64,000 nucleotides of DNA, taken from positions 28,477 to 92,476 of the forward strand of contig FR882601.1 in assembly GCA_000435715.1 (NCBI GenBank), read 5' to 3'. The position numbers and the translations under genes are program-made. The stretch comes from Firmicutes bacterium CAG:145. GTDB lineage: Bacteria; Bacillota; Clostridia; Peptostreptococcales; Anaerovoracaceae. The notes beneath the pieces are model-generated. The model worked only from the letters and a program-made list of their open reading frames with translations, ran no database searches and was not told the DNA's origin. This document shows positions 30,726 through 60,510 of the stretch, in pieces. Every line of letters begins with the position of its first letter. The stretch's first letter is position 1.

Positions 30726-30743
30726 AAATTGGAGCGAATCAAA

Positions 30744-31550
30744 GTGGATATACTCAAGATTATTTGCAATGAACATTTATTATACAGAAAACAGATTGTG
30801 AGGTTGGCAAAATCTGATTTAGTAAAAACATACAGAGGCTCTGCCCTTGGATGGTCGTGGGCCTTCATAAAGCCCATGGTAACCATATTCGTTTACTGGT
30901 TCGCCTTTAGTTATGGGATAAGAACAGGCGGAGATGTGGACGGATATCCGTTTTTTTTATGGCTTATAGCAGGCTTTGTCCCATGGTTCTATATGAGCGA
31001 GATGATAACTCAGGGAGCGGGGTGCATGCGAAGCAACAGACATCTTATCACGAAGATGAAGTTTCCCGTTTCTGTAATTCCAACCTTCACAAGTTTATCA
31101 AAACTGACGGTACATCTTATCCTTATGGCGGTAACCATCGTTATCTTCATCGCTTTTGGGTATATGCCGGATAAATATTTTATTCAATTGCCGCTCTATA
31201 TGCTTATGATGTTTACTTTTTTTACATTTTGGGGGCTTTTTGCAGGAATGCTATCGGCGATAAGCAAGGATTTTCTCAATCTGGTAAAGTCTTTTACTAC
31301 GGCGATATTCTGGATGTCGGGAATTATATATAACGTAAACAATATAGAAACGCAGTGGATAAGGACTTTGTTGCAGTTCAATCCAGTGACTATAATAGCC
31401 AGCGGATACAGGCATGTACTTACCGACAAGACATGGTTCTTTGAAGAACCGGTGGAACTCAGAAACTATCTGATAATACTAGCAGTCATGGTTTTGCTTT
31501 CGGCATGGGCCTACAAAAAGCTTCACAAGGATATGGCTGATGTATTGTAG
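30744..31550 (+). CDS. tagG: ABC-2 type polymer export permease (TagG/Wzm-like).
   Basis: Six-TM ABC-2 permease. The ORF is open from 30723. Start taken as the GTG at 30744, 9 nt after GGAG. Confidence 0.8.
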   Translation: MDILKIICNEHLLYRKQIVRLAKSDLVKTYRGSALGWSWAFIKPMVTIFVYWFAFSYGIRTGGDVDGYPFFLWLIAGFVPWFYMSEMITQGAGCMRSNRHLITKMKFPVSVIPTFTSLSKLTVHLILMAVTIVIFIAFGYMPDKYFIQLPLYMLMMFTFFTFWGLFAGMLSAISKDFLNLVKSFTTAIFWMSGIIYNVNNIETQWIRTLLQFNPVTIIASGYRHVLTDKTWFFEEPVELRNYLIILAVMVLLSAWAYKKLHKDMADVL

Positions 31551-31561
31551 AAAGGCTACAT

Positions 31562-32287
31562 ATGGAAGAAGCAGTTATTATATTTGATAATGTGACGAAG
31601 ATATACAAACTTTACAGAAACGATAGAGAACGCTTCATGAGCTTGTTCTCTAAAAAGAAGAAATATAAGGAGAAAAAGGCAGCTGACAACATTTCTTTTA
31701 CTGTAAATAAAGGGGAGAGCGTGGCGCTGCTGGGCAAAAACGGAGCAGGCAAATCTACCATAATGAAGATGATAACAGAAGTCACTTTTCCTACAGAGGG
31801 TAAGATCACTGTAAACGGGCGAGTCAGCGCGTTGCTGGAGCTTACGGCGGGATTTGACGGAGAGTTTACAGGGAGAGAAAACATTTACCTCAAGTGCAAC
31901 ATAATGGGCATGAATGATAAGCAGATAAGAGAGGTAGAGGAAACAATCATAGAATTTGCTGAACTTGGAGACTATATCGACCAGCCCGTCAGGACTTATT
32001 CCAGCGGAATGAAGGCGAGGCTTGGATTTTCGATAAATGTGAATGTGGAGCCGGAAATCCTGATAGTGGATGAGGCTCTCAGCGTAGGAGATAAAACATT
32101 TCAAAAAAAATGCATCACAAAGATAAGAAAAATAATGGCCGGCGGCAAAGTAACATTTTTATTTGTAACACATTCTACCGCTGCTGCAAAAGAATTTTGC
32201 CGAAGAGGAATCGTTTTGGATAAGGGAAAGATCATTTTAGACGGGGAGATAGAAGAAGCCATAGGGTTTTATGAGAGGCAAAAATGA
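31562..32287 (+). CDS. tagH: Polymer-export ABC transporter ATP-binding protein (TagH/Wzt-like).
   Basis: Walker A GKNGAGKST, signature YSSGMKARLGF, Walker B ILIVDEALSVGD. Confidence 0.85.
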   Translation: MEEAVIIFDNVTKIYKLYRNDRERFMSLFSKKKKYKEKKAADNISFTVNKGESVALLGKNGAGKSTIMKMITEVTFPTEGKITVNGRVSALLELTAGFDGEFTGRENIYLKCNIMGMNDKQIREVEETIIEFAELGDYIDQPVRTYSSGMKARLGFSINVNVEPEILIVDEALSVGDKTFQKKCITKIRKIMAGGKVTFLFVTHSTAAAKEFCRRGIVLDKGKIILDGEIEEAIGFYERQK

Positions 32288-33426
32288 AGCGAATAATAAT
32301 CGGAGCGCTGTTAGCACTGCTTAAAGCGTTGCTAAGCCTGCTCTATAGCATTTTGAAAATTTTTCCTGTTCAAGGGAAAAAAGTGGTTTTTTGCAGCCGT
32401 CAGTCCAATGAAATACCGCTGGATTTTATATTGCTTCAGAATAGTTTAAAAGAAAAAGATGAGGAGATCAGATGTATCAATATGTGCAGGCATATAGGAT
32501 ACAATTTTCTTGATTACCTTAAGTTTTCGATAGTCATGCTTAAGAGCATGTATCATTTAGCCACAAGCAAGGTGTGCGTGCTGGATTCATATTGGCCGCC
32601 CGTAAGCCTTCTAAAGCATAAGAAGGAGCTGGCGGTAATACAGATGTGGCACGCTATAGGCAAGATAAAACAGTCAGGATTGCAGTCAGTCGGTAAAAAA
32701 TCAGGTAGAAAAGCCGAATATGCAGACTTTTTTAATATGCATAAAAACTATGAGTATATCATCGCAGGTTCAAAATCGTGGAATAAATTTTATTGTCAGT
32801 CTTTTGGAACTACTGAAGATAAAATACTCAATTACGGACTGCCGAGAATAGATTATCTTATACAAAATGAAAAGAAAAACAGGGATAAGTTTTTTGAAGA
32901 ACATCCGCAGGCGCGCGGAAAGAAGGTAGTTCTGTATGCGCCTACCTTCAGAAGAAATATGCAGTCGCGTTGGTTTGATATTTCGAAAGCCGCAGGGCAT
33001 CAAAATCTCGTTATAATCGTGAAAAATCATCCGGGACAGCATGATCAGTACAGGATAGACGATGATAATTTTATATATGCCGATAATTGGAAGACTCTGG
33101 ACTTGCTATGCGCATGCGACTATCTCATAACAGATTATTCCGCCATAGCTCTGGAAGCAGCCGCTTTGAATAAGCCGACTTATTACTGGATATATGATTA
33201 TGAAGAATATCTTTTAAACAATGGCCTCAATATAGATTTAAAAAAGGAACTTGCCCCATATGCGTTTGAGGACATAAATATAATTACTGATAAAATATTA
33301 AAAGAAAAATATACATATGATAAATATAATGAATATAGGGCTAAATATCTATTTGACAATATCGGACAGTCTACCTTGAAAATATGTACGCTTATCATCA
33401 GTTTACTGGGGGAAGAGAAAAAATGA
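32284..33426 (+). CDS. CDP-glycerol/CDP-alcohol glycerophosphotransferase of the TagB/TagF family.
   Basis: The TagF-family motifs LYAPTFR, LITDYSAIALEAA and KPTYYWIYD are present. 380 aa. Confidence 0.8.
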   Translation: MKRIIIGALLALLKALLSLLYSILKIFPVQGKKVVFCSRQSNEIPLDFILLQNSLKEKDEEIRCINMCRHIGYNFLDYLKFSIVMLKSMYHLATSKVCVLDSYWPPVSLLKHKKELAVIQMWHAIGKIKQSGLQSVGKKSGRKAEYADFFNMHKNYEYIIAGSKSWNKFYCQSFGTTEDKILNYGLPRIDYLIQNEKKNRDKFFEEHPQARGKKVVLYAPTFRRNMQSRWFDISKAAGHQNLVIIVKNHPGQHDQYRIDDDNFIYADNWKTLDLLCACDYLITDYSAIALEAAALNKPTYYWIYDYEEYLLNNGLNIDLKKELAPYAFEDINIITDKILKEKYTYDKYNEYRAKYLFDNIGQSTLKICTLIISLLGEEKK

Positions 33427-34451
33427 TTCGATGGAAAATAAAACTTTGTCTACAGTTTTTTTATTATGTATTGTTTAGCAAAGGAAACTTTAAATTAGGA
33501 TGGATAAAACGCTTAAATATAGCGTTCAATGGAGGTTTTACAGCAAACCAGTTCTATATATTCAATCTCAAAGAAAATAACAAGGGCGAGTACCTTTCAG
33601 AGTATGACTGGTTTAAATCGAGGCGTCTAAATAAACCTTATGATTATATATTAAACGATAAATTCTTATTCAATGAAATAGCAAAACAATATGTAGCTGT
33701 ACCTGAAATATATGCCGTAAAGAAATACAGTAGAATTGAAAACCGATTAGGTGACAATTCTGTGGAAGATATATTAGATTTAATAAAAGAAAAGAAAGAT
33801 GTCATGTTAAAGCCGCTTTCTTCCGGCAAGGGTAATGGTGTGTCGCACATACGATTTTCCAATGAAGATGGCATGTACATTGACGGCAGATTTTCAAATG
33901 ATGGTGAGGTTATATCTACATTGACTGAGCAGAAGAACTGGATTGTTACGGAGAGGCTCAAACAGGCCGATTACTCAAAAAACATATATCCCGGCTGTCT
34001 GAATACCATCAGAATTTTAGTGATAAAAGACTACGAGAGCGGACTATTTAAAATAATCAATGCTGTTCACAGATTTGGAACATCTGCTACAGGAGCAGTT
34101 GACAATGCCAGCCGCGGCGGGATTGTTTCTCAGATTGATATCGGTACGGGAATGCTGACAGAAGCCTTAAGCATTAAAAATCTTAACATTTATTATTTTC
34201 ACCCCGATACTAACGTGAAAATAAAAGGGACTTCCGTACCCGACTGGGAGAATATCAAGGAAGAGATTATTGAGCTGTCAGAACGGTTTTTCTATCTGAA
34301 AATGATAGCCTGGGACATAGCGGTTACTTCCGAGGGTCTGTTTGTAATAGAGGCCAATTCATCCTCAGGCGTGAATATTCTTCAGCTTTGGGAAGGTCAG
34401 AGAAATAAAGAACTGGGAGAATTTTTAAAGCACCACAAAATAATAAGGTGA
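33423..34451 (+). CDS. Sugar-transfer-associated ATP-grasp (ATPgrasp_ST) amidoligase, single domain.
   Basis: The ORF is open from 33384. Start taken at the ATGA overlap with the tagF-like stop. Motif IRILVIKDYESG ... RFGTSATGAVDNASRGGI ... FVIEANSSSG, with the Gly-rich segment at about 34071-34121. Confidence 0.65.
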   Translation: MIRWKIKLCLQFFYYVLFSKGNFKLGWIKRLNIAFNGGFTANQFYIFNLKENNKGEYLSEYDWFKSRRLNKPYDYILNDKFLFNEIAKQYVAVPEIYAVKKYSRIENRLGDNSVEDILDLIKEKKDVMLKPLSSGKGNGVSHIRFSNEDGMYIDGRFSNDGEVISTLTEQKNWIVTERLKQADYSKNIYPGCLNTIRILVIKDYESGLFKIINAVHRFGTSATGAVDNASRGGIVSQIDIGTGMLTEALSIKNLNIYYFHPDTNVKIKGTSVPDWENIKEEIIELSERFFYLKMIAWDIAVTSEGLFVIEANSSSGVNILQLWEGQRNKELGEFLKHHKIIR

Positions 34452-35071
34452 ATTTTATGAAATACATAATTATGGCTGATGGTGAAGGAAAACGCTGGAA
34501 AAATTATAACGGTCTACCCAAGCACCTAATCCCTGTAGACGGAGAACCAATCATTAAACGCACTATAAACCAAATAAGGAGTATAGATAGTCGTGGAGAC
34601 ATAATAATAACATCACATAATGAGTCATATGAGTTTGAAGGAGCAAAAAGATATGCGCCTGAGAACAATAATCTCGAAATAGACAGATTTACCGAAGAGC
34701 TTATAGAAGATAATATATGCTTTCTTTACGGAGATACATATTATACAGACAGATGCCTCCGCCGTATATCGGAAGAAGACTGTGGAGTTATCAGCTTTTT
34801 CGGCAACGAAAAAAGTATCGTAGCGGTAAAGATACGCTGCGGTGAGGAATTCAGAAAGCATAAAAATATAGTTAGAAACCTGTATATTCGAGGGAAAATT
34901 GACAATTGCATAGGATGGCAGGTATATCAGTCTTGTGCAGGTCTTGAAATAGGTAACGATAAAAAAATAGGGAAGTTTTTTATAAATATTTCTCAGGAGA
35001 CATTTGATATAAACACGCCTGAAGATTACATAAAGTCTTTTGGCAACATAGGAAGGCGAAATGAATATTAA
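34448..35071 (+). CDS. Nucleotidyltransferase of the LicC/IspD-like NTP_transferase fold. Probably activates a CDP/NDP-alcohol precursor.
   Basis: IIMADGEGKRWKNYNGLPKHLIPVDGEPII. This G-x-G-x-R-x(n)-PK nucleotide-binding signature resembles LicC/IspD. 207 aa. Confidence 0.55.
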   Translation: MNFMKYIIMADGEGKRWKNYNGLPKHLIPVDGEPIIKRTINQIRSIDSRGDIIITSHNESYEFEGAKRYAPENNNLEIDRFTEELIEDNICFLYGDTYYTDRCLRRISEEDCGVISFFGNEKSIVAVKIRCGEEFRKHKNIVRNLYIRGKIDNCIGWQVYQSCAGLEIGNDKKIGKFFINISQETFDINTPEDYIKSFGNIGRRNEY

Positions 35072-37292
35072 AAGAAAAATTAAAAGAATCAGAAGAATAA
35101 AGAATATCTTAAAGATAATCATCGTCTATAGATTGAAAGGCTATCCATATTATATCGCCAAATCGTGGGGAAGAAAGGTTCATAGGGATCTGATATCTGA
35201 TAACGGAAGAACTAAAAAAGAAAAGAGATGGGCTCATAGAAGAGGATTTCTTTCATATAGCATTAAAAAATATGGCCTGACAGAAGATAATTACAAAGAG
35301 TTTTTTTCTGATTTTCAATATACCTTGTTAGCACCTATAAACAATGCATATAAGAAGTGGCTCTCAGACAGGCTTACTCCTTGTTATATTTTGAAGGGGT
35401 ATGAGGAATATCTGCCCAATCTATATTGCAATATCATACGAAGAAACGGCGGACAGATTTATATACCGCTTAATAAGGACAGGCCTTTGGACGGTATAGA
35501 CGACCTTTTGAATCTTGTAAAAGAGAAGGGTGAAGTCTTACTCCTACCTTCAGAAAACAATTACATAAAGGCATCGTATGATATTAAATACGACGATGGG
35601 AAACTTAAAGTAAATAATGAGGATATAGCAGAGGAACAGCTGAAGAAACTGATAACCGGTTTAAGGAGATATTATGTGCTGAGGGAGAGGGTTGAAAACT
35701 GCCGTGACATAAAAGAATTATTTGCCGGTTCAGAGATGGAATTCGTATTTATCCTTTCTAACGATGAATCGGCGAAAACACGAATACTGTGTTCTTATGC
35801 CCGTTCCGAAAGACCGTATAGCTTTGGACTTGATATAAGCGCGAGAGTAAAAGAACAACCGATGCAGGTGATAATAGACAAGGAAAACGGAACTTTCAAA
35901 TACGAAAAATCAGAGGAACAAATAGAAGGACAAGTTCCACTATGGAAAGAAATGTGCTCGCTATCTGAACAAATCGGGAACCATATCTCGGAAATAGAGT
36001 ACATGTCAATAGTTTTTAAGGTTTCACAGGAAGGCCTTAAGATAGTTGGATACCATGATATGCCTACGATGCCCAAGGGGATTTCGCCTGAAAACGAACT
36101 CAATTTATATCTTAAGAAGAGAGCTGAAGACAAGGCGCAACGGATTTGCTTCGGCGGCATAAAAACTAAAGGAAAAATTAAGAGAAGGGCAATCAGATTT
36201 CTGAAAAGGCATTATTTCAGGAAAGGGTTCAGAGAATACATGCTTGCGTCATGGTTGAACTTGGTAAAAGACGATTTTCTCAATACAAAGAGCACTACAC
36301 TGAAAGAAAAATTATGGGCATGGAAAAGAGGGTTTACATCCTACAGAATACAGCAGTATAGTCTGACAGAAAAAAATTGCAGGCAGATTCTCTCTGATTA
36401 TGATTATGCCTGGCTTAACAGGATAAACAACGGGTACCAAAAGTGGATAAATGATAAGACCACGATGAGATATGTGCTTGATGAAGCAAAAGAGTACATG
36501 GCCGGCTATTATTTTTTCATAAGTAAAAAGAACGGAAAGCTGTTCATTAAAAAATTGCAGGACTGTCCGGAGCATATCGGCAGGGCAGACTCCGACGGAA
36601 TTCTGCAGCTCCTCAGAGAAAAAGAGAAACTTGTAATGAAACCCAACGCCGGAACTCACGGAGACGGCTTTTATAAGCTGGAATACACAGATGAAGCCTT
36701 TTTCGTAAATGAGAAAGAATCTTCGGCAGACAGGATAAAAGAACTCATATCGTCTCAGAAAAGCTCTTATGTGATAACGGAATACATAGAAATGCACCGA
36801 GACCTTAAGAAAATATACCCCGGTTCCGTAAACACCATAAGAATGATGGTCATAAACAAAACCTGCTTTGAGCCCAAGATAGTTCAGACATATATGAGAA
36901 TCGGAAGTTCGAAGACCGGCGTCACGGATAACATAGCCTATGGCGGCTTGGCGGCATATGTGGATAAGGACAGCGGATATTATGACAGAGCTGCCTTGCT
37001 TTCAGATCACAGGTATATCAGCATGGATCATCATCCCGATACGGGAACTTTGCTCGAAGGCTATCTGCCAAATTGGGAAACGGTGAAAAAAGGTGTATAT
37101 GACATTTCTATGATGATTCCTCAGCTTGAATACCTCGGCTTCGATATAGCTATAACTGAAGACGGTTTTAAGATACTTGAAATAAATATACATCAGGATA
37201 TACATAAAGCCCACGAATTCACTGAAGAAATAAACCGATTTTTTTCCGAAAAGATACAGTATAAAAAAGAGTTGTTTAATCTGACAAAATAA
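35061..37292 (+). CDS. Tandem ATPgrasp_ST protein. It has a degenerate N-terminal ATP-grasp-like domain plus a C-terminal domain that keeps the catalytic Gly-rich motif.
   Basis: 743 aa. An internal repeat is present (KKEKRWAHRRGFLSYSIKKYGLTEDNY ... and KEKLWAWKRGFTSYRIQQYSLTEKNC ...). The C-domain carries IRMMVINK ... RIGSSKTGVTDNIAYGG ... LEINIHQD. Confidence 0.65.
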   Translation: MNIKRKIKRIRRIKNILKIIIVYRLKGYPYYIAKSWGRKVHRDLISDNGRTKKEKRWAHRRGFLSYSIKKYGLTEDNYKEFFSDFQYTLLAPINNAYKKWLSDRLTPCYILKGYEEYLPNLYCNIIRRNGGQIYIPLNKDRPLDGIDDLLNLVKEKGEVLLLPSENNYIKASYDIKYDDGKLKVNNEDIAEEQLKKLITGLRRYYVLRERVENCRDIKELFAGSEMEFVFILSNDESAKTRILCSYARSERPYSFGLDISARVKEQPMQVIIDKENGTFKYEKSEEQIEGQVPLWKEMCSLSEQIGNHISEIEYMSIVFKVSQEGLKIVGYHDMPTMPKGISPENELNLYLKKRAEDKAQRICFGGIKTKGKIKRRAIRFLKRHYFRKGFREYMLASWLNLVKDDFLNTKSTTLKEKLWAWKRGFTSYRIQQYSLTEKNCRQILSDYDYAWLNRINNGYQKWINDKTTMRYVLDEAKEYMAGYYFFISKKNGKLFIKKLQDCPEHIGRADSDGILQLLREKEKLVMKPNAGTHGDGFYKLEYTDEAFFVNEKESSADRIKELISSQKSSYVITEYIEMHRDLKKIYPGSVNTIRMMVINKTCFEPKIVQTYMRIGSSKTGVTDNIAYGGLAAYVDKDSGYYDRAALLSDHRYISMDHHPDTGTLLEGYLPNWETVKKGVYDISMMIPQLEYLGFDIAITEDGFKILEINIHQDIHKAHEFTEEINRFFSEKIQYKKELFNLTK

Positions 37293-37311
37293 AAAGAAAG
37301 TGGTGAAAAGT

Positions 37312-38388
37312 ATGAAAATTTCTATTTTAGGAGCAGGAAATTCAGGATGCACTATTGCAGCGGATTTGACGCTGAAAGGCCATGAAGTCACTTTGATAAA
37401 GACTTCAAAAGCGATGCACAACGACAACTATAAGTTCATGACACAGAATAATAATGAGCTTACCGTATGGGAAGACGGAAACACCGTAAAAGTGAATATC
37501 GCCGAAGTTACTGACGATTTGTCAAAAATCGCCGGAGCCGAAATAGTAATGATATTTACTCAGACCAATTATCATGAGCAGTTGATAAAGAGAGCGGCAA
37601 AGTATTTTGAAGACGGGCAGACGATAATAATAAACCCGGGTTATTTATCTACGGCATTTATATTAAAGCATTGCGGCGACAAGGATCTCACCGTTGTCGA
37701 GGCGACCAGCTCCTTCATAGATTGCAGAATAACGGAACCGGGATATATAAAGGTCGGCTTCAGAAATGTGAGAAATCCTATCGGAGTATATCCGCATAAG
37801 AATCAAGAGATTACGAGAGAAAAGCTCGAGAGCCTGGGCTATAACTTTCACTACTTTTCTATACCTGAAATCGCTCTGCACAACCCTAACCTTATAGTAC
37901 ATACGGTGGGAGCCGTTATGAGCATACCCAGGATAGAGAAGACCAACGGGGATTACTGCATGTATTGGGAAGTCTGGACGCCAAGCGTCTGGAACATATT
38001 GGAGAAGCTGGATTCAGAAAAAATGGACATATTAGAGAAGCTGGGATACGAGAGGCTGGCTTATGTGGACGCATGCAAATTTAGAAATACCCTTGAAGAC
38101 GACCGGGACGGAAAAGAAATATTCATGTGGTACGCCAACATGCCGACGAGAGCCAAAGGACCGGTAAAAGTAGATTCCAGATATATTTCAGAGGATATAC
38201 CTCAGGGGCTTGTGATGCTTGAGACTCTTGGTGAAAAGCTGAATGTAGATACACCGGTATGTACATCTCTTATCGAGATGGCCTCAGCGGCTTTGGGACG
38301 TGATCTCAGAGCAGAAGGAAGAACTATAGACATACTCGGAGAAGATAATATATCTACGATTTTATCAGATATAAGAGAAAATGAGTAA
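37312..38388 (+). CDS. Opine dehydrogenase family protein (octopine/nopaline-DH-like NAD(P) oxidoreductase).
   Basis: MKISILGAGNSGCTIAADL is a Rossmann motif. The fold has the N-terminal G3P-DH/ApbA-like domain plus the Octopine_DH helical domain. The ORF is open from a GTG at 37300. Confidence 0.55.
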   Translation: MKISILGAGNSGCTIAADLTLKGHEVTLIKTSKAMHNDNYKFMTQNNNELTVWEDGNTVKVNIAEVTDDLSKIAGAEIVMIFTQTNYHEQLIKRAAKYFEDGQTIIINPGYLSTAFILKHCGDKDLTVVEATSSFIDCRITEPGYIKVGFRNVRNPIGVYPHKNQEITREKLESLGYNFHYFSIPEIALHNPNLIVHTVGAVMSIPRIEKTNGDYCMYWEVWTPSVWNILEKLDSEKMDILEKLGYERLAYVDACKFRNTLEDDRDGKEIFMWYANMPTRAKGPVKVDSRYISEDIPQGLVMLETLGEKLNVDTPVCTSLIEMASAALGRDLRAEGRTIDILGEDNISTILSDIRENE

Positions 38389-40360
38389 ATTCCTGAGATG
38401 CTTAAAAAGATATGGACTTATTTACAGAGGGTTTTCGGATATGGCCGCGCGCCTGCTGATTGAAGACAAGTCAACGGGCCAGCGGTATAAAAGAAATCTG
38501 AAACTATACAGAGACTATCTTTTTATATATCCCGTCATGGGAAAATATAATAAGCTTGCCGATAACTTGCTCACCCTTAAATATATTTTTAGCGACGACG
38601 ACCGTCTTCCGGATGTATATTTTCAGGTGCTCAGGAGAAACGGGGTAAGGGAGACAGTGGCTCTGAGAGACGCCGCCAAATACGGAGACGATATAGGCGT
38701 GGCTGACCTACTGCGGCTCAAAGGCTCCCTTCTTCTCATGCCTTCGGACCTTTCCTGCGGTAAAAGAGACGTTTTAAAGTATTCTGAAAAAGAGTTTTTC
38801 GTGAATGATACCCGCGTTTCTGAAGAAGAACTTTATGATTTTGCCTGCGGGGCCGAGGATTTTTCTATAGTGACGGAAAACTTTGCAGGAATCGGAGAAG
38901 AAAGCGGCGAGGAAGCCCGTGAGTTTACATATATAGTAAAAAACCTTGACGGATATTCTCCTGAAATAATCGGCTGTTATTTAAAAAAATCTTTCGGCGG
39001 CGCGGTTTCAGAGCCGAGGGAGGACATCTGCGGCTACGTTAAAGATGTTGCGCTGCGCTTAAAAGAGCTGGAACTTTTCGGCATTAAAATAATAGCGCAG
39101 GGAAACGACTTTAAAGCGGCGGGCATAAGTTCGCTTCCTATCGTTCCCGGCAGTCTTTTTGAAGTTGCTGAATTTTCCGACTTCATCACGGAGAAGACTC
39201 GGCAGAAAAGACGGAGTCTTCACCTTAAGAGGCAGCTTTTTCTTTTAGCAAAGGCCGTGTATTCTGATATAGCGGAAAAACGGGGCTATATGGGATTTAT
39301 GATGAAGAATTGGCAGAGAGATTTATTTGAAGATTGGAAATTCAGAGGAACTACCATAAGAGAGAAGCTGTGGAGCCATAAGCGAGGTTTTTTCTCCTAC
39401 AGGATAAGACAGTACGGGCTGACGAACGAAAATTACAGGAATTTTTTGCCGGACAGGACTTATCGAAAGCTGAGACCCATAAACAACGGCTTTGTTTCAT
39501 GGGTTTATGATAAAGTCATCACCAGATACGTACTGGAAGGAAAGAAGGAGTATCTGCCTAAGTATTACTATCATTTGATACGCGGCGGAAAAGACCTGAA
39601 GATACTCGCTCTTCCGGATTGTAAAGACGGCAGTAAGCACGACGCTGGAGACATTATTGGGCTGCTGAAAAAAGAAAGAAAGCTGGCCTTAAAACCCAGC
39701 GAAGGCTCCCACGGAGAAGGCTTCTTTAAGTTGGAGTACAGAGACGGCAGAATTTGCGTGAATGACGAGGAAATGGAAGAAGAAACCTTCATAGATTTTC
39801 TGAGGACCAGAAAGATTCCTTATAATATAACGGAATATTTGGAGAACAACAGAGCCCTCAGCGAATTTTACAAAGACACCACTTTTACCATAAGAATAAT
39901 GGTCATAAACGACAAGATTACCTCCCCGCAGATAGCCAACGCTTACTTGAGAATCGCCACTAAAAAAACGGGAAATACCGACAACATAGGAAGCGGGGGA
40001 GTCTGCGCCAGAATAAATTTGGAAACGGGGGAAATATTCGAGCCCGAAAAGATAGAAAATCACATCATAACGCCGTGTCCCGTTCATCCCGACACGGGAG
40101 CCATTATTAGGGGAGTCATACCTAATTGGCGGGAGATAAAGGAGGGCGTTAAAGATGTGAGCAGATATATATGCCAGCTTGAATATATGGGCTTCGACGT
40201 TGTGGCCACCGAGGATTCTTTCAAAATATTGGAGATAAATACTCATCAGGACCTGCACAGATATCATCATTACGGCAGCGAGGTCCACCGATATTTCATG
40301 GAAAAAGTTGACGAGCGTTTGTCAAAGAGAGGAAGGGATAACCATGATTTTCAGGAATAA
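38381..40360 (+). CDS. Tandem ATPgrasp_ST protein, with a degenerate N-domain and an intact C-terminal amidoligase domain.
   Basis: 659 aa. The N-half is homologous to the N-half of the 35061 protein (LLLMPSDLSCGKRDVLKY compared with LLLPSENNYIKASYDIKY). The C-half carries IRIMVIND ... RIATKKTGNTDNIGSGG ... LEINTHQD. Confidence 0.6.
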   Translation: MSKFLRCLKRYGLIYRGFSDMAARLLIEDKSTGQRYKRNLKLYRDYLFIYPVMGKYNKLADNLLTLKYIFSDDDRLPDVYFQVLRRNGVRETVALRDAAKYGDDIGVADLLRLKGSLLLMPSDLSCGKRDVLKYSEKEFFVNDTRVSEEELYDFACGAEDFSIVTENFAGIGEESGEEAREFTYIVKNLDGYSPEIIGCYLKKSFGGAVSEPREDICGYVKDVALRLKELELFGIKIIAQGNDFKAAGISSLPIVPGSLFEVAEFSDFITEKTRQKRRSLHLKRQLFLLAKAVYSDIAEKRGYMGFMMKNWQRDLFEDWKFRGTTIREKLWSHKRGFFSYRIRQYGLTNENYRNFLPDRTYRKLRPINNGFVSWVYDKVITRYVLEGKKEYLPKYYYHLIRGGKDLKILALPDCKDGSKHDAGDIIGLLKKERKLALKPSEGSHGEGFFKLEYRDGRICVNDEEMEEETFIDFLRTRKIPYNITEYLENNRALSEFYKDTTFTIRIMVINDKITSPQIANAYLRIATKKTGNTDNIGSGGVCARINLETGEIFEPEKIENHIITPCPVHPDTGAIIRGVIPNWREIKEGVKDVSRYICQLEYMGFDVVATEDSFKILEINTHQDLHRYHHYGSEVHRYFMEKVDERLSKRGRDNHDFQE

Positions 40361-43300
40361 GAAAGCGAACCTCGCCGAGGGTTTAGCAAAATACGAAAAG
40401 GAACCGCCCGGCTATAAGAAAAAGACGCGTACCGTTCCGGAAACCGCGCCGAGATATGTTTACGACAAAGAGGAAAACTGCTACAGGAATACGGAAACCC
40501 GCTCCTCGAATACGGCCAGACTGATGTGCGTGGGAGACTTGATGTGCGAAGAAAAGATGTACAAGGCCTACAATTTCGACGATAAATTTCTTCCTTACGG
40601 GATTTTCTATTACGTAAAAAAAGTTTTTGCCGAAGCGGATTTTGTCATAGGAAATCTGGAAACCACCATATGCGAGGAGGCTCCTTATACCGGAGAAGAA
40701 TATAAGATAAACGGCAAGTATCACTGCAACGCTCCGGCTTCATATCTGGATATATTGAAATACGCCGGATTCGACATGTTCGCCCTCTCAAACAATCACA
40801 ATTTGGACTGTGGAGCCTTGGGAATCGGCGAAACTATCGAAGAAGTAGAAAAGCGAAAGTTTCTCCATACGGGACTGTATACAGACCCCAACGAGAAGGA
40901 CAGGTATGTGGTGGTAAATATCAACGGAATAAAGGTCGCCTTTCTTTCTTATTCCACATGGTTTAACAAAAACCTAAGCAGGCTTACCGAAAAGGGACAA
41001 GGCCTTTTAAATATATATGATATAGAAAAAGTGAAAGAAAATATAACCGCTGCCAAGGGGCCAGGGGAGGCAGACCTTGTCATCGTATATATGCACTGGG
41101 GCGTCGACAGAGAGTACAAGCATCAGTTCGGAGACAGCCAAAGGCGTCAGGCCGAAGAATTGGCTGCCGCAGGAGCCGATTACATAGTTGGCAGCCATAC
41201 CCATTCGCTTCAGGGTTATGAGGAAATAACTGCACCCGACGGCAGAACTGTGCCTGTAATTTATTCCTTGGGAAATTTTGCTACCAGCGAGAGAAATTAT
41301 CTGAGCAGGGACAACGCTATCTTGACGCTAAATTTAAAAAAGGGCGGCGACGGAAAGGTAAGCGTCAGCTCCTCATACATACCTTGTCACGTGTTCGATA
41401 ATTTTTACGGAAGGAAGTATCCTATAGTTCCGGCGATAAGTAAATATAACGAGAACTGTGAATCGGAGTATTTGATAAAGACAAGAAATCTTGCCGAAAA
41501 GATAATGGAATATAAGATTCCCGAATACGGCGCGGAGATAAGTGAAAGAATCTGCAAAGCTCTCATTTTGGAGGCGGCCGGCAAAAGAATTTCCACGGAG
41601 GAGGATAATGAAAGATACACCTGCCTCAGATTTGCTCAGGACGCGGCGGAAGGCTGCGCAGCGTTCGTCAACGTGACTTCAAACCCGCATATTAAATTTT
41701 CGCAGGCGCGGATAGAAGAAATGGCAGATTATGCGATTTCCAAAGGTGCAAAAGTAATAGTCAGCGACAGACAAGTGAAGGAATATCCGTGCATAATAGT
41801 TGAAGATGTTTGGGAAACATGGGCTAACGCTCATGGAATATTGAGAAAGACATATGAAGGAAAAGTAATCGGTATAACGGGAAGCATAGGAAAAACGGCC
41901 GCCACGGGAATGGTGTACAGCATTTTATCAAGCAGATATAAAACCCACGGCCTTACTTCAAATGCAAATACGGTTAGATATTCGGGAATAGTCCTTCAGC
42001 GTTTAAAAAAGGAACATGAAGTTTACGTTCAGGAAATAATGGAGGGGCCTCCTTACGGATGCGCCCAAAACATTTCACATTTCATCAGACCTGACATAGG
42101 GATAATAACTAAGGTCGGATCTTCTCACATGGAGGCGTTCGGAAGCAAAGAAAGAGTAGCCGAGAGCTGTTTCGGCATAGAATACGGCATGGCTGAAAAC
42201 GGGGTTCTCATTATAAACGCGGACGATCAATATCAAGCTTCATTTAAGGACGCGAAACACAAAATAGTTACCTATGGCGTAGAAAACGAGAAGGCAGATT
42301 ATAAGGCTTCACAAATAAGGCAGACTATTGAAGATATAAATTTTGTTCTTAGCTATAAGGATAAATCATTGAATATAACCTTAAAGTGCATAGGAATACA
42401 TAATGTATATAACGCTTTGGCGGCCTTTGCCGCAGCCAAAGAAACGGGTATGAAGGACAGAGAAATAGCAGAGGCTTTGTCAAAATACAGAACAAGCGGA
42501 ATACGCCAAAACCTTACGAATATAGGAGGACAAAGATTTTTCTTAGATTGCTACAACGCTTCGAGCGAGTCCATAAAAGGCGCTCTTGATACTTTAGATT
42601 TTTTAAAGAAAAGTACGGATATAAAAACGACAGCTGTAATAGGAGATGTGCTGGAGCTTGGTGAAAGCAGCAAGAAAGAGCATGAGCCTATAGGAAAGCA
42701 CATATTAGATTCAGATGTCGATTCAGTCTTACTTTACGGCAGTGAAATGAAAATCGCTTATGAATACGCCTCAAATAACACTACTAATAAAAATCTGTTT
42801 TATACTGACAATTATGATTTATTAAAAGAAGAAGTAGAAAAGAGCATGTCCAAAGACAGCATAATTATGCTAAAAGGAAGCAGAGGAATGGCACTTGAGC
42901 GAACCGTAGACGACATTTTCGGAACTTGGTATCACGAGGAATTTGAGAGAGACGAGCATACATACGAAGAACAGGATACAGAAGAATATGTTATAGGCGA
43001 GTATTTAAAGTACGTTGTAATTAAAAAAGGAAAGACGACGTCAGATAAAATAAGTATCCCCGACTTGATAAACGAAAAGCCTGTAATCGGAATAGACAAA
43101 ACAGCGTTTTCCCAAAACAGCCGAATAAAAGAGGTGACGCTTCCGACGGTTTTAAAGAGCATAAGATATTGCGCTTTTTATAAATGCTCCGGTCTTACGG
43201 AGGTGACGATACCGGAAAGCGTGAGAATTATCGACAGAAGCGCTTTTTCAACATGCGCCAATCTTCGAGTTGTAAAAATAGAAAACGGAACGGCGGAGCT

Positions 43301-43481
43301 GGGTTACAGGGCCTTCGGAAACTGCGCGAATTTGGAGAAAATTTATATACCCGAATCTGTAGTTAAAATCGGAGGAGAAGCCTTCCTTAACTGTAAAAAC
43401 CTTACGATTTACTGCGTTAAGGATTCCTTCGCCGATAAGTACGCTAAAAGAGAAAATATCGAGACTTGCTATATAGAATAG
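40344..43481 (+). CDS. Tri-domain fusion of a CapA/PGA_cap (calcineurin-like) domain, a Mur ligase family domain (MurF/CapB-like amide ligase) and a C-terminal BspA-type leucine-rich repeat.
   Basis: CapA motifs VGDLMCE ... GNLET ... LSNNH ... GSHTH ... SLGNF. Mur ligase motifs GITGSIGKTAATG (P-loop), DCYNASSESIKGALDTL and LKGSRGMALE. The LRR_5 repeats are LPTVLKSIRYCAFYKCSGL, IPESVRIIDRSAFSTCANL and IPESVVKIGGEAFLNCKNL. The ORF is open from 40308. The ATG at 40344 has the RBS gaggaaggga. Confidence 0.7.
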   Translation: MIFRNKKANLAEGLAKYEKEPPGYKKKTRTVPETAPRYVYDKEENCYRNTETRSSNTARLMCVGDLMCEEKMYKAYNFDDKFLPYGIFYYVKKVFAEADFVIGNLETTICEEAPYTGEEYKINGKYHCNAPASYLDILKYAGFDMFALSNNHNLDCGALGIGETIEEVEKRKFLHTGLYTDPNEKDRYVVVNINGIKVAFLSYSTWFNKNLSRLTEKGQGLLNIYDIEKVKENITAAKGPGEADLVIVYMHWGVDREYKHQFGDSQRRQAEELAAAGADYIVGSHTHSLQGYEEITAPDGRTVPVIYSLGNFATSERNYLSRDNAILTLNLKKGGDGKVSVSSSYIPCHVFDNFYGRKYPIVPAISKYNENCESEYLIKTRNLAEKIMEYKIPEYGAEISERICKALILEAAGKRISTEEDNERYTCLRFAQDAAEGCAAFVNVTSNPHIKFSQARIEEMADYAISKGAKVIVSDRQVKEYPCIIVEDVWETWANAHGILRKTYEGKVIGITGSIGKTAATGMVYSILSSRYKTHGLTSNANTVRYSGIVLQRLKKEHEVYVQEIMEGPPYGCAQNISHFIRPDIGIITKVGSSHMEAFGSKERVAESCFGIEYGMAENGVLIINADDQYQASFKDAKHKIVTYGVENEKADYKASQIRQTIEDINFVLSYKDKSLNITLKCIGIHNVYNALAAFAAAKETGMKDREIAEALSKYRTSGIRQNLTNIGGQRFFLDCYNASSESIKGALDTLDFLKKSTDIKTTAVIGDVLELGESSKKEHEPIGKHILDSDVDSVLLYGSEMKIAYEYASNNTTNKNLFYTDNYDLLKEEVEKSMSKDSIIMLKGSRGMALERTVDDIFGTWYHEEFERDEHTYEEQDTEEYVIGEYLKYVVIKKGKTTSDKISIPDLINEKPVIGIDKTAFSQNSRIKEVTLPTVLKSIRYCAFYKCSGLTEVTIPESVRIIDRSAFSTCANLRVVKIENGTAELGYRAFGNCANLEKIYIPESVVKIGGEAFLNCKNLTIYCVKDSFADKYAKRENIETCYIE

Positions 43482-43512
43482 TAGGCCGCTGAAGTAAGAG
43501 GTCGGAGAAGAC

Positions 43513-44580
43513 ATGGAAAACAAAGATAAATTGACGATTTGCTTTTTATGGGGAGGACAATCTTCCGAAAATCAGGTGTCGAGAAATTCAGCCGTCTCGA
43601 TTTTAAGAGAAATAGACAGAGATAAATACAATATAATCTGCGTCGGCATAACTTCACGGGGAGAATGGCTTGTAACAGACGCCAGCACGGATGAAATCGC
43701 AGACGGGAGCTGGGAAGACAGAAAAGGCAACAGGCGGGCTATTCTGTCACCCGATACATCAACGGAAGGTTTAATATCAGAAGACGGAGAAAAGATAAAG
43801 GTCGATTTGATATGGCCTGTGCTGCACGGCAAGAAGGGTGAAGATGGAACTATACAGGGCCTTTTTGAATTGTCGGGAATTAAATATGTGGGCTGCGGTG
43901 TCGCCTCATCGGCTTGCTGTATGGACAAAGTTCTTACGAAAATATTAGTATCCAATCTAAATGTAAAACAGGCAAAAAGTTATATAGCCGGTAAAACCGA
44001 CTTTGAAGAGGATCAGGACCGGATAGTATCGGATACGGCCAAATACTTTTCCGGATTTTGGCCGCTCTTTGTAAAACCTTCATCTTCCGGTTCATCGGTA
44101 GGGATATCTAAAGTCGGAGACCTTCGGGAACTGAGGAACGCCTACGAGACGGCTTTTAAGGAGGATAGTAAGGTCATAGTGGAAGAAGCTGTTGTCGGAC
44201 AAGAAGTGGAAACAGCGGTCTTGGGCAACGAAGTCCCATTGGCTTCAAGCGTTGGTGAAATATTGTCTTCAGGAGACTGGTATGACTATAATTCAAAATA
44301 TAATAACATTCGGTCAAAAACCATTATTCCCGCCCGCATTGACGACAATACAGCTGAAAAGATAAAGAAACAGGCCTTGGAGATATATAAGCTTCTGGGT
44401 TGCCGTAATTTAGCCAGAGTAGATTTCTTTGTCAGAACGAACGGTGAAATAATTTTTAATGAAATCAACACCCTGCCTGGATTTACCGCTGTAAGCATGT
44501 ATCCTAAATTGTGGCTGTACGACGGGATTACATATAGCAGACTGATTGACGAAATCATAAAATATGCCATGGAACAGTAA
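43513..44580 (+). CDS. ddl: D-alanine--D-alanine ligase.
   Basis: KLTICFLWGGQSSENQVS, and the C-terminal motifs RVDFFV ... NEINTLPGFT. 355 aa. Confidence 0.9.
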   Translation: MENKDKLTICFLWGGQSSENQVSRNSAVSILREIDRDKYNIICVGITSRGEWLVTDASTDEIADGSWEDRKGNRRAILSPDTSTEGLISEDGEKIKVDLIWPVLHGKKGEDGTIQGLFELSGIKYVGCGVASSACCMDKVLTKILVSNLNVKQAKSYIAGKTDFEEDQDRIVSDTAKYFSGFWPLFVKPSSSGSSVGISKVGDLRELRNAYETAFKEDSKVIVEEAVVGQEVETAVLGNEVPLASSVGEILSSGDWYDYNSKYNNIRSKTIIPARIDDNTAEKIKKQALEIYKLLGCRNLARVDFFVRTNGEIIFNEINTLPGFTAVSMYPKLWLYDGITYSRLIDEIIKYAMEQ

Positions 44581-44671
44581 AAATATCATAAGATTTTTAA
44601 CGGAGAACAGATATATGATTTAAAAAAAAGAATATATAGAAATAAAATCTACCAACAATACTAAATATGCG

Positions 44672-45436
44672 ATGCAAGGATCGGCAGTTTCCTTTTGTGT
44701 TTCAAACAACAAAAAGTCATACAAGGGGGGGTATGATAAAATAGAAATGCAGTTCTCAGAAGAAGATAATATTGAAATAGTGTCAAATAATTCTTTTCTG
44801 ATTCTGGAAAGAGACTTTGATTTTACGGTTGAGGTCGATGTAAAGTATAAAAACATTTCAAAAGCTTTTAAGTTTGAAACATTTAGACAAAAGAAAAATC
44901 CGGAGAATACTCTGATTCTCATAAATAAACTTACTAAAATAGATGAAGGATATGTTCCGAAACTTGAATATATCTTTGGCAGGCGGTTAAACCCGATAGT
45001 CGTACCATCTTTGTGCGAAATGTTTAAGGCTGCTATCTCTGATGGTATCTGCATTTATCTTGATTCGGCGTACAGATCATACGCTATGCAAAGGGACATA
45101 TACGACAGATATGTACAAAAATACGGGCAAGATCAAAGATATGCGGCAATGCCGGGAGAAAGTGAACATCATAGCGGGCTGAGCGTAGACATATTATGGG
45201 GAGGTCCCAGCTCAGATGAAAAGAGGAGAAAATCCGATGAATTTAAATGGTTAGAAAAAAATTGCATGAAATTTGGCTTTGTTTTGAGATACCCTTTTAA
45301 TTCTGAGAAAATTACAAAATATAATTTTGAACCGTGGCATTTCAGATATATTGGCCGGCAGGCTGCGAAAGATTTTTATCAATCGGGATGCGCAGTATTG
45401 AAAGAATTTTTATCTTATTACGGCAGAAATATATAA
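44672..45436 (+). CDS. VanY-type D-alanyl-D-alanine carboxypeptidase (peptidase M15B).
   Basis: SAYRSYAMQRD, ESEHHSGLSVDI and EPWHFRYIG are the Zn-binding His-x6-Asp and His motifs. The true start may be the Met at 44747 (MQFSEEDN). Confidence 0.75.
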   Translation: MQGSAVSFCVSNNKKSYKGGYDKIEMQFSEEDNIEIVSNNSFLILERDFDFTVEVDVKYKNISKAFKFETFRQKKNPENTLILINKLTKIDEGYVPKLEYIFGRRLNPIVVPSLCEMFKAAISDGICIYLDSAYRSYAMQRDIYDRYVQKYGQDQRYAAMPGESEHHSGLSVDILWGGPSSDEKRRKSDEFKWLEKNCMKFGFVLRYPFNSEKITKYNFEPWHFRYIGRQAAKDFYQSGCAVLKEFLSYYGRNI

Positions 45437-45565
45437 CTTCCCCAACAGACAAGCCCGAAAACTCCATAGCCTTAAATAAGGGACAATTTATATTCAAATC
45501 CTGCGTTTTGTGTTATACTTTATCTGCGAGATGAATTCTAAAATCGCAGAAAGGGGAATAGTACA

Positions 45566-47017
45566 TTGAAAAGAGATGAAAATAAAAGCAAAAATACAGC
45601 AGCCAATGTTCTCACAGCCGTCTTCTTGCTGGTAGAGGCCTTGTTCATAGCGATGATGGTGACGGCAGGTATCTTTTCTGCCAAGCACATCATCTTTGCA
45701 GGTGTCATACTTCTCATAATTACCTTGATCACACTGATACTTTTACGTTCAGACAGACAAAAGAAGGGAAGAAGGCGTACAGGGGCAGCTCTGGCGGTGA
45801 TCTTTTCGGTCATCTTAGCCATAGGAAGCTACTATCTGTACAGCACTTTCGATCTCTTTGGCACAATATCCAAAGACGATAAACAGACAGAAGATTTCTA
45901 TGTGGCAGTATTGAAAGACGGCAGCTATGATGACATCTCAGATATAAAAGGAGAGACCGTTTTCGTAAGCGAAGGAGAGAACGATGCCTATAAAGACGCC
46001 AAGGACAGGCTTAAAGATGAATACGAAGTCACTTATGAGAATTCAGGGGCTTATGTAGATCTGGGACGTAAGCTCATAGGAGCAGACGGAAACAACTTCG
46101 ATAACATCATCTTTGTCAGCAGCATAAACTACGATATGCTCTGTGAAGAGATAAGCGATTTCAGGGATAATACAAAGATCTTATATACTGTTTCCATAGA
46201 GATAGAAAACGAAGACGTGGCTAAGCCCGCCAACGTGACGGAGCAGCCGTTTAACGTGTATATAAGCGGCATAGATACCTACGGCAATATCAATAAAGTT
46301 TCAAGGAGCGATGTCAATATGATAATGACGGTAGATCCGGCCAGGAAAAAGATATTGCTCACTTCTATTCCAAGAGATATGTATGTAACTCTTCATTCTT
46401 ACGGAGCTAAAGACAAGCTCACCCATACGGGCATATACGGAGTGGACGAGACTGTCACTACTGTCGAAGACTGGCTGGGGATAGACATAAACTATTACTT
46501 GAGAGTAAACTTCACGACTCTTGAAGACGTAGTGGACGTCATTGGCGGTATAGATGTGGAATCGGAGTACAGTTTTAAATCTTCTGCTTCCAAGTATAGT
46601 TACGTCAAAGGAATCAATCACATGAGCGGAGAAGCAGCTCTCTATTTTGCAAGAGAAAGGTATGCTTTTGCTTCCGGCGATAATCAGAGAGTGAGAAATC
46701 AGCAGCTGGTGATACAGGGGATAATCAACAAGATCATGAGCGACAAGAGCCTGCTGATAAAATACCCTCAGCTCCTGGGCGCAGTCAGGGATCAGATGAG
46801 AACCAATATGACAGACGACGATATTTCATCACTTGTAAAGATGCAGCTTGATGATATGACAGGATGGGAGATAGAAACATGCGCCATTACCGGAACAGGA
46901 ACCATGGCGGCCACTTACAGCGGCGGCTCTCAGAACCTTTCCGTCATAATCCCCAGTGATACGTCGGTCTCTTATGCAGCAGGAAAGATAAGAGATATGA
47001 TGAACCGGTCAGAATAA
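45566..47017 (+). CDS. LytR-CpsA-Psr (LCP) family phosphotransferase, which ligates wall polymers to peptidoglycan.
   Basis: N-terminal TM anchor plus the LCP core (NVYISGIDTYG ... SIPRDMYV ... GEAALYFARERY). TTG start with RBS aaagggga. Confidence 0.85.
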   Translation: MKRDENKSKNTAANVLTAVFLLVEALFIAMMVTAGIFSAKHIIFAGVILLIITLITLILLRSDRQKKGRRRTGAALAVIFSVILAIGSYYLYSTFDLFGTISKDDKQTEDFYVAVLKDGSYDDISDIKGETVFVSEGENDAYKDAKDRLKDEYEVTYENSGAYVDLGRKLIGADGNNFDNIIFVSSINYDMLCEEISDFRDNTKILYTVSIEIENEDVAKPANVTEQPFNVYISGIDTYGNINKVSRSDVNMIMTVDPARKKILLTSIPRDMYVTLHSYGAKDKLTHTGIYGVDETVTTVEDWLGIDINYYLRVNFTTLEDVVDVIGGIDVESEYSFKSSASKYSYVKGINHMSGEAALYFARERYAFASGDNQRVRNQQLVIQGIINKIMSDKSLLIKYPQLLGAVRDQMRTNMTDDDISSLVKMQLDDMTGWEIETCAITGTGTMAATYSGGSQNLSVIIPSDTSVSYAAGKIRDMMNRSE

Positions 47018-58877: not shown

Positions 58878-58878
58878 G

Positions 58879-60501: not shown

Positions 60502-60510
60502 ATCTTTTTT

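Follow-up and report, generated by a model that had tools for sequence, protein, structure and literature searches.

What is the role of a bacterial protein that carries, on one chain, a CapA-type domain, a Mur ligase and leucine-rich repeats? The question is raised by a gene at 40344–43481 on the + strand of a 64,000-nucleotide stretch of DNA (the window) from Firmicutes bacterium CAG:145, also listed as Candidatus Fimenecus sp., of the Clostridia (assembly GCA_000435715.1, contig FR882601.1, positions 28,477 to 92,476). A sequence-only reading had described its product as a fusion of CapA/PGA_cap, MurF-like and BspA-type leucine-rich repeat (LRR_5) segments, and had interpreted it as a D-Ala-D-Ala-adding enzyme retargeted to an acceptor outside peptidoglycan. 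Our analysis indicates that the description was right and that its main inference appears to be the best-supported reading of the locus. With about as much confidence as doubt, we view the fusion as a cytoplasmic, three-module tailoring enzyme of a conserved pathway that builds side chains on a wall glycopolymer. The earlier reading is extended here by the operon context, which includes TagGH/TagF-like genes, three ATP-grasp ligases, an opine dehydrogenase, a VanY-like peptidase and an LCP enzyme. In addition, the probable role of the "CapA" domain is revised, because the only characterised PGA_cap relative, MslH, is a C-terminal peptide epimerase.

Architecture and catalytic residues of the fusion

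In the open reading frame (ORF) listing of the window, one unbroken + strand frame runs from a TTG at 40308 to 43481, so the architecture does not come from three misjoined ORFs, a danger that the sequence-only reading had itself raised. The likely product, of 1045 amino acids (aa), starts at an ATG at 40344, because GGAAGGG lies six bases 5′ of this codon and the coding sequence shares 17 nt with the end of the preceding gene. Four Pfam domains were found in it, each far above its curated cut-off: PGA_cap (PF09587; aa 60–314, E 6e-61, 206.6 bits against a cut-off of 27), Mur_ligase_M (aa 511–698, E 5e-35), Mur_ligase_C (aa 728–847, E 2e-10) and LRR_5 (PF13306; aa 905–1021, E 4e-27, 95 bits), the last of which also matches PDB 4fs7 (E 2e-35). 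Profile searches thus bear out the CapA, Mur and C-terminal LRR_5 assignments alike.

An AlphaFold2 model built from 41 relatives (mean pLDDT 89, pTM 0.69) contains three folded units. These are a PGA_cap unit of CapA/MslH type with a calcineurin-like fold at aa ~57–390 (40512–41513), a three-domain MurF unit at aa ~399–860 and an LRR_5 unit of BspA-type repeats at aa ~875–1045 (42966–43478), the last delimited by Pfam, the 4fs7 match, the model and hydropathy. The best PDB folds for the ligase part in a Foldseek comparison are MurF structures, such as that of A. baumannii (4QF5; E 2e-30, TMt 0.85). Because the Foldseek alignment spans the whole of 4QF5 (472 aligned columns for a 459-residue target), all three MurF domains are present, the N-terminal one included. 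The N-terminal domain lies at aa ~399–503 (41538–41852; Foldseek, the MurF family model TIGR01143 and alignment with a canonical MurF), the central ATP-binding domain at aa ~505–716 (41856–42491; Pfam and family alignment) and the C-terminal domain at aa ~720–860 (42501–42923; Pfam, family alignment and Foldseek).

The fusion protein lacks a membrane segment and a signal peptide, because the Kyte-Doolittle mean is at most 1.12 in every 19-residue window, in agreement with its earlier description as cytoplasmic-looking. No secretion signal or wall anchor was found by hydropathy; the protein thus shares LRR_5 repeats with the BspA-type surface proteins but not their secretion signal and surface anchoring. 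Membrane segments and signal peptides were likewise absent from every fused (PGA_cap plus Mur) relative among 120 proteins checked, including versions with S11 or SH3 domains, and the sole protein flagged as hydrophobic or signal-bearing was a stand-alone PGA_cap protein (P0114). CapA/PgsA belongs to the same Pfam family and is also partnered with a Mur-superfamily amide ligase (CapB/PgsB), but it is membrane-anchored and works with separate subunits, PgsB, PgsC and PgsE, whereas the fusion is one soluble chain with a MurF-type ligase. What CapA/PgsA does has been hard to establish, in part because the membrane complex in which it works, the poly-gamma-glutamate synthase, is unstable (PMC8179263). 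A CapA-type domain joined to a ligase in a soluble protein with a confident model makes the proposed epimerase role directly testable.

This architecture is a real, common, modular and uncharacterised enzyme family, and is not unique to the window. A word-index search for co-linear fusions recovered ~100 full-length or nearly full-length proteins that combine PGA_cap with Mur_M and/or Mur_C, and usually also with LRR_5, from Butyrivibrio sp. AE2005 (where PGAP names the protein "CapA family protein"), Oscillospiraceae and many rumen and gut assemblies, and an identical or near-identical protein was seen again in public assemblies (P0001, L003). The earlier remark that no characterised protein with this architecture was known stands in that the relatives are uncharacterised, but the protein is no one-off: it has more than 100 relatives and belongs to a large, automatically annotated family. 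The database names "MurF" and "CapA family protein" both fail to describe these fusions.

The Mur part had been thought nearer to MurF than to CapB, and TIGR01143 is indeed its top Mur subfamily in NCBIfam, with 257 bits over aa 462–856, against at most 96 bits for MurE, MurC and MurD. The score nevertheless falls short of the curated TIGR01143 cut-off of 288.6 bits, as it does in all fused members tested (208–257 bits for the window protein and five others, the five at 208–242). The TIGR01143 matches of fused members begin at profile positions 26–58 (27 in the window protein), and the ligase is 22–31% identical to MurF proteins, whereas a canonical MurF of Clostridia encoded beside ddl (L085) scores 400.9 bits over profile positions 2–414. 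Within the family the Mur module is itself weakly conserved, down to ~29% identity.

The likeness to MurF (TIGR01143; PDB 4QF5, 4CVM, 2AM1 and 1GG4) extends to the catalytic residues, which were examined in an alignment of 56 non-redundant family members. The P-loop (GSIGKT) lysine K517 is kept in 53, Q563-E564 in 56, H595 in 50 and N625/D627/D628 in 56, and the conserved residues of the C-terminal domain, R721, D735, H780 and K844, are kept in 53, 54, 53 and 53, respectively; the central domain also holds H686 and N687. The set comprises the P-loop, the Mg-binding Glu and the His, Asn, Arg and Asp residues of Mur ligases. The ATP and Mg residues of the Mur active site are thus intact, but the module departs from MurF at two other places. 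First, Cys609 occupies the position of a lysine in the "aK.EI" or "K.E" motif of MurD/E/F, which we take to be the carbamoylated one; a study by Dementin in 2001 reportedly dealt with this carbamoylated lysine of Mur ligases, as did, judging by its title, one by Cha et al. in 2014. Cys is the commonest residue at this position in the family (37 of 56 members), Phe occurs in 6, and Lys is limited to 5 early-branching members. Second, the DSR and G..F.G motifs, which are conserved in MurE and MurF and bind nucleotide, are lost: the window protein has QDAA and TSNP in place of the DSR and GENFNG of the canonical L085 MurF, the one reference sequence compared here, with the fold kept. Some relatives of the fusion retain D-x-R.

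The PGA_cap module is better preserved. Near-invariant residues in the 56 members are D65, E106 (in GNLE), N150, N151, H152, D155, H251, E257, H285, H287 and N311, so that the putative metal ligands in the GNxE, NNH and GSHTH motifs, on which the sequence-only reading had focused, are intact. The acid/base dyads of MslH, an epimerase of the C-terminal Trp of a lasso peptide (PDB 8GQ9), are H88/D91 and H295/D11, and its Ca(II) ligands are E44, N87, H259 and H261 (PMC10406935). A HMMER alignment equates E106 with E44, N151 with N87, H152 with H88, D155 with D91, H251 with H259 and H287 with H295, and D65 was matched to D11 by motif position only. The counterparts of both dyads, H152/D155 and H287/D65, are kept in 54–56 of the 56 members. 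Among the Ca ligands, E106, N151 and H251 are kept; H261 aligns to Gly253, for which the invariant E257 and H285 could substitute. The fusion family also differs from MslH in the extra invariant His285, in its low identity (22%) and in a score of 42.6 against the 700-bit cut-off of NF038314. Profile scans of the window revealed no RiPP or lasso-peptide genes and no RRE partner near the fusion.

The operon and its recurrence in relatives

The fusion gene is the ninth of 12 + strand genes at 30723–47017, which are separated by gaps of at most 31 nt, with several overlaps, from 30723 to the end of ddl at 44580, and then by 91 and 129 nt. Genes 1–2 (30723–32287) encode an ABC-2 permease and ATPase resembling the TagG/TagH glycopolymer exporter, and they are followed by a CDP-glycerol-type glycerophosphotransferase of the TagB/TagF family (Glyphos_transf; 32284–33426), a single-module ATPgrasp_ST ligase (33384–34451) and a small nucleotidyl (cytidylyl) transferase with a weak IspD/MobA-like match (34448–35071). 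Next are a 743-aa ATPgrasp_ST ligase of tandem double modules (35061–37292), an opine dehydrogenase (37300–38388) and a 659-aa, two-module ATPgrasp_ST ligase with a degenerate N-terminal half (38381–40360). The fusion is followed after 31 nt, as had been noted earlier, by a D-Ala-D-Ala ligase gene, ddl (43513–44580), and then by genes for a metallo-carboxypeptidase of the VanY/LdcB family without membrane anchor or signal peptide (44672–45436) and a membrane-anchored LCP (LytR-CpsA-Psr) enzyme that transfers glycopolymer to peptidoglycan (45566–47017). These assignments were made with Pfam, supplemented by NCBIfam for the last three proteins and by hydropathy for the last two. The export, polymer-building and attachment genes belong to the same families as those of wall teichoic and teichuronic-type pathways (TagGH, TagB/F, LCP).

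Both long ATPgrasp_ST proteins are internal tandem duplications of which Pfam sees only the C-terminal module; comparison of the halves gave E 5e-43 for the 743-aa protein. In the 659-aa protein, the N-terminal half has degenerated much further and may be a pseudo-ligase module without catalytic activity. Ligases of this "sugar-transfer associated"/TupA kind are known to amidate polysaccharide carboxylates; an example is the TupA-like ATP-grasp protein Cj1438C of Campylobacter jejuni, which amidates a uronic acid of the capsule (PMC11800379). The opine dehydrogenase is a full-length homologue of N-(1-D-carboxyethyl)-L-norvaline dehydrogenase (1BG6, E 3e-29), and it gave the highest-identity match to the window operon (60% each) in the two relatives compared, L007 and L009. 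The product may accordingly contain an N-carboxyethyl (opine) residue.

The window Ddl carries the Tyr (WYDY) and SMY signatures of D-Ala:D-Ala enzymes. Its best PDB match is VanG (4FU0), and a Ddl paralogue beside a VanY-family peptidase recalls the VanG-type D-Ala-D-Ser clusters. We rejected a D-Ala-D-Ser assignment: Gly, Tyr and Met occupy the positions of VanG D243, F252 and R324, which we take to be the determinants of D-Ser selectivity, the score is 373.5 bits against a cut-off of 495, and the operon contains no VanR/S, VanT or VanX-type genes. The peptidase itself is unlike classical VanY in being without a membrane anchor, and in relatives a cytoplasmic S11 DD-carboxypeptidase, sometimes fused, takes its place.

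A comparison of nine distinct contexts of the LRR-bearing clade showed a constant cassette of ligases, opine dehydrogenase and fusion, which recurs beside ABC-2 exporters, whereas the backbone genes differ. Glyphos_transf plus nucleotidyltransferase genes are found in the window, L004 and L006; Glyphos_transf in L091; GT2 plus GT4 in L001 and L088; and GT8, GT4, UDP-glucose dehydrogenase and Bac_transf in L092. All nine contexts include an opine dehydrogenase, and seven a Ddl, adjacent in the window, L001, L004, L007, L088 and L091 and fused in L006. LCP genes are found in the window, L004 and L006, with ABC-2 exporter, glycerophosphotransferase and LCP genes arranged alike in all three, and a VanY-like gene is adjacent, or an S11 DD-carboxypeptidase fused or adjacent, in the family. 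In an LRR-less Oscillibacter locus (L090), an AlaDH/PNT-type dehydrogenase replaces the opine dehydrogenase, and a UDP-glucose dehydrogenase and a protein with ATPgrasp_ST and LRR_5 are present without Ddl.

Several contexts bear signs of mobility. In L088 (13148–15400 and 15554–17119) the fusion is followed by the cluster's own alanine racemase and Ddl and then by serine recombinases, and in the related L089 (17395–20708) by genes for type IV secretion system (T4SS) coupling proteins, suggesting that the cassette may be carried by an integrative element or lie at the edge of one. A related cassette is carried by an actinobacterium, Glutamicibacter uratoxydans NBRC 15515 (L054, 1–12600; NZ_BJNY01000006.1). 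It encodes a PGA_cap plus Mur protein and an LRR plus PGA_cap plus ATP-grasp protein, its Glyphos_transf, ATP-grasp and nucleotidyltransferase proteins are 35–43% identical to those of the window, and its GC content is 0.476 versus 0.551 in the flank. It looks like a horizontal acquisition from a low-GC donor.

A proposed side-chain pathway and its competitors

We propose, judging the chances to be roughly even, that this pathway builds a peptide/opine side chain on a teichoic-acid-type wall glycopolymer, and that the fusion combines a retargeted D-Ala-D-Ala-adding enzyme with a CapA-type epimerase. In this scheme, whose substrates and order of steps are our proposal, the three ATPgrasp_ST ligases and the opine dehydrogenase would assemble a short side chain ending in a free alpha-carboxylate. 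The MurF-type module would activate this carboxylate with ATP via an acyl-phosphate, an intermediate common to all Mur ligases, and would then add D-Ala-D-Ala supplied by the adjacent Ddl. The CapA/MslH-type module would epimerise the carboxylate-bearing residue, in the acceptor ahead of ligation or else in the product. The LRR_5 domain would serve as a docking or substrate-recognition module common to several pathway enzymes, a shared role suggested by its occurrence on ATP-grasp enzymes of the same pathway (in L007, L009 and L090). The cytoplasmic VanY-like peptidase, or the S11 DD-carboxypeptidase in relatives, would trim the terminal D-Ala; hydrolytic trimming is a more likely shared role than transpeptidation, because two mechanistically unrelated peptidases replace each other. 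Finally, the TagGH-like ABC transporter would export the polymer and the LCP enzyme would attach it to peptidoglycan.

The donor of the fusion is very probably D-Ala-D-Ala, because the ligase is akin to MurF, Ddl is adjacent or fused, a racemase is present in L088 and a DD-carboxypeptidase accompanies the family as VanY or S11. The acceptor is probably not UDP-MurNAc-tripeptide, because the MurF score is below threshold, the N-terminal motifs are lost and ATP-grasp, opine dehydrogenase and ABC-2 exporter genes are obligatory neighbours, and because L009 holds a second MurF-like gene and the cassette shows signs of horizontal mobility. The retargeting postulated in the sequence-only reading thus gains from the context, the Ddl and S11 fusions, the alanine racemase in one relative cluster, the sub-threshold MurF score and the poorly kept carbamoylated-Lys position and DSR motif, and it remains inferred.

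For the PGA_cap module, analogy makes a metal-dependent, two-base C-alpha epimerase acting on a residue with a free carboxylate most likely. This assignment is favoured because MslH is the only assayed PGA_cap relative, because CapA has been proposed to act as a peptide epimerase on the growing poly-glutamate chain (PMC8179263), and because the fusion partners of PGA_cap all handle D-residue peptides. Moreover, the residue on which MslH acts has a free C-terminal carboxylate, the group that a Mur ligase activates.

Several observations weigh against this proposal. The ligand set formed by H251 and H285-x-H287 suits a two-metal hydrolase as well as a one-metal epimerase, and the MslH Ca ligand H261 is Gly in the fusion. 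Because Ddl is absent from L092, L090 and L012, members of the family may use different donors. In the window operon no gene for a glycosyltransferase or a uronic acid points to a carboxylate-bearing acceptor, and adding and then trimming D-Ala-D-Ala in the cytoplasm is without an obvious rationale. Lastly, the operon was present in all 24 contigs read with identical enolase, and is therefore not visibly dispensable in the species.

A more ambitious version of the proposal, which we regard as possible but doubtful, holds that the operon makes a peptidoglycan-like stem on a secondary wall polymer, namely a peptide/opine chain ending in D-Ala-D-Ala and made by a soluble "assembly line" of ATP-grasp, opine dehydrogenase and MurF-derived enzymes, and that PGA_cap is a general C-terminal epimerase partner of amide ligases. 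If the proposal holds in either form, the dedicated D-Ala-D-Ala machinery (Alr, Ddl, MurF and DD-carboxypeptidase) would not be exclusive to peptidoglycan but would form a portable cassette that has been enlisted to modify other wall polymers among the abundant Clostridia of gut and rumen and, at least once, in an actinobacterium. A polymer tipped with D-Ala-D-Ala could then be cross-linked by transpeptidases or serve as a decoy for glycopeptide-type antimicrobials, and a general epimerase role of PGA_cap would also reveal the function of CapA/PgsA in poly-gamma-glutamate synthesis. Operon-linked peptide ligases for teichuronopeptides and O-antigens were predicted earlier, in general terms (PMC4431377). 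In the literature searched, we found no description of a CapA-MurF fusion or of such an operon, nor any teichoic or capsule pathway described with a MurF-like ligase, Ddl, opine dehydrogenase and PGA_cap. The enzyme kinds, Mur ligase and CapA-type, are known, and their combination may represent a new type of wall-polymer decoration pathway.

Somewhat less probable again is that the pathway is as we propose but its PGA_cap module is a metallophosphoesterase, which would, for example, strip the acceptor of a phosphate or nucleotide, or do the same to a phospho-amine once ligation is complete. A phosphatase step does follow an amide-forming step in the capsule pathway of C. jejuni. The invariant H285-x-H287 resembles H175/H177 of YmdB, as listed in PMC10406935, and together with D65, N151 and H251 could form a two-metal site, in keeping with Gly253 at the place of the Ca ligand. 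Nevertheless, phosphoesterase activity has been demonstrated for no PGA_cap protein, the single member assayed being an epimerase, and the fusion partners of the domain (Ddl, S11, M23, SH3b, Mur and ATP-grasp ligases) all point to D-residue peptides as substrates.

The remaining alternatives dispense with the secondary polymer or with D-Ala-D-Ala. We consider it improbable that the cassette remodels peptidoglycan precursors, modifying the stem or branch of UDP-MurNAc-peptide or lipid II, with the MurF-like module adding D-Ala-D-Ala to the modified stem. ATP-grasp D-Asp ligases and Fem- and Mur-type branch enzymes offer parallels for such a process, Ddl, the VanY/S11 carboxypeptidases and alanine racemase are peptidoglycan-type functions, and some relatives carry SH3b and M23 domains, which normally bind or cut peptidoglycan peptides. 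The cassette is, however, consistently linked to ABC-2 exporters (Wzm/Wzt, TagGH-type), to glycosyl- or glycerophosphotransferases and, in three contexts, to LCP genes, all of which speak for secondary polymers, and the UDP-binding motif of MurE and MurF is lost.

Very unlikely, in our judgement, is a housekeeping role, in which the fusion would be the organism's only UDP-MurNAc-tripeptide:D-Ala-D-Ala ligase and work with Ddl in normal peptidoglycan synthesis, the PGA_cap and LRR parts being accessory. Adjacency of ddl and murF is usual in Firmicutes and was seen for the canonical pair in L085, profile scans revealed no other murF within the 64-kb window, the genome is small (~2.3 Mb; longest contig 2.32 Mb), and all 24 contigs read from the species show the same operon. 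A complete MurF fold with conserved ATP-site residues fits this role as well. It conflicts with the sub-cut-off TIGR01143 scores of all fused members tested, with the Cys at the carbamoylated-Lys position and the lost DSR and G..F.G motifs, and with the wide sequence divergence of the Mur module within the family. It conflicts also with the constant setting of the gene among ATP-grasp, opine dehydrogenase and ABC-2 exporter genes, with the two MurF-like genes of the L009 cluster and with the location of the cassette in a low-GC actinobacterial island and beside recombinase and T4SS genes. Least probable of all is a PgsB/PgsA-like polyamide synthase that would extend the polymer with a chain of one amino acid (poly-glutamate or a different homopolymer, as in teichuronopeptide). 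Although a Mur-superfamily ligase with PGA_cap mirrors the PgsB plus PgsA pairing, and in relatives the fusion is found with ATP-grasp genes of TupA type, a name taken from teichuronopeptide synthesis, the ligase is MurF-like with no PgsB/CapB model among the 25 NCBIfam matches listed, Pfam found no PgsB-, PgsC- or PgsE-type genes in the window operon, the fusion has no membrane anchor, and the linkage to Ddl, alanine racemase and DD-carboxypeptidase points to D-Ala-D-Ala instead of glutamate polymerisation.

Domain shuffling and neighbouring features

The modules of the family are shuffled, PGA_cap and its partner ligases, Mur or ATP-grasp, being joined in every domain order. Additional domains include SH3 at the N-terminus (P0003–P0008), Ddl at the N-terminus (P0022, locus L006) and Peptidase_S11 at either end (P0012, P0258). 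Other members have two PGA_cap domains (P0229), two Mur modules (P0179), the permuted order Mur-LRR-PGA_cap (P0256, L044) or the combination ATPgrasp_ST plus Mur plus LRR plus PGA_cap (P0304, L013), and PGA_cap plus LRR proteins are encoded beside ATP-grasp genes in L032 and L045. Without Mur, PGA_cap is also fused to Peptidase_M23, or to a methyltransferase and an ATP-grasp domain. In L007 (9902–12937) the gene is split by an in-frame TAA into PGA_cap (422 aa) and Mur plus LRR (578 aa) parts; the break falls within the MurF N-terminal domain and may be natural, mark a pseudogene or come from faulty assembly. The second MurF-like gene of the L009 cluster (6865–9756) encodes a 963-aa protein that also contains a VanY-D/transpeptidase-like region and a hexapeptide acetyltransferase.

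A search of 50%-identity representatives showed ~20 co-linear clusters among the best 150 matches, the rest being swamped by giant LRR_5 proteins; the LRR_5 part matches hundreds of such multi-repeat proteins of 2000–8000 aa (P0167–P0310). The matches listed in a scan of genome contigs for PGA_cap patterns were mostly stand-alone PGA_cap genes, with none from the species of the window among them. A tblastn search of plasmids yielded no co-linear copy and matched only canonical MurFs, at 28–31% identity.

Distant members of the family (L010, L012 and L093) adjoin genes for amino-acid transporters and for amidohydrolases or M20 peptidases, and their function may differ. PGA_cap-Mur relatives lie directly beside transporter and Amidohydro_3 genes in L010 (5378–8381) and L012 (6998–14243). 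In the window, an amino-acid permease gene and two Amidohydro_3 genes are located ~14 kb downstream of the fusion (57489–62150); identity to the genes of these relatives is only ~25%, so we rejected conserved synteny and regard the resemblance as probably a coincidence.

The operon is flanked by housekeeping genes, with enolase upstream and dapA, asd, uppP, ftsK and recA downstream. The best sigma-70-like promoter match, at 30614–30642 (+), agrees with the consensus at 11 of 12 positions and is a consensus match only. A 70-aa helix-turn-helix protein of XRE type is encoded divergently between enolase and the operon start (30246–30458, − strand) and may be a local regulator. Near the start of the window (273–4532), a 1419-aa protein unrelated to the fusion combines BcrAD_BadFG ATPase modules with DUF2229, as in activases of 2-hydroxyacyl-CoA dehydratases.

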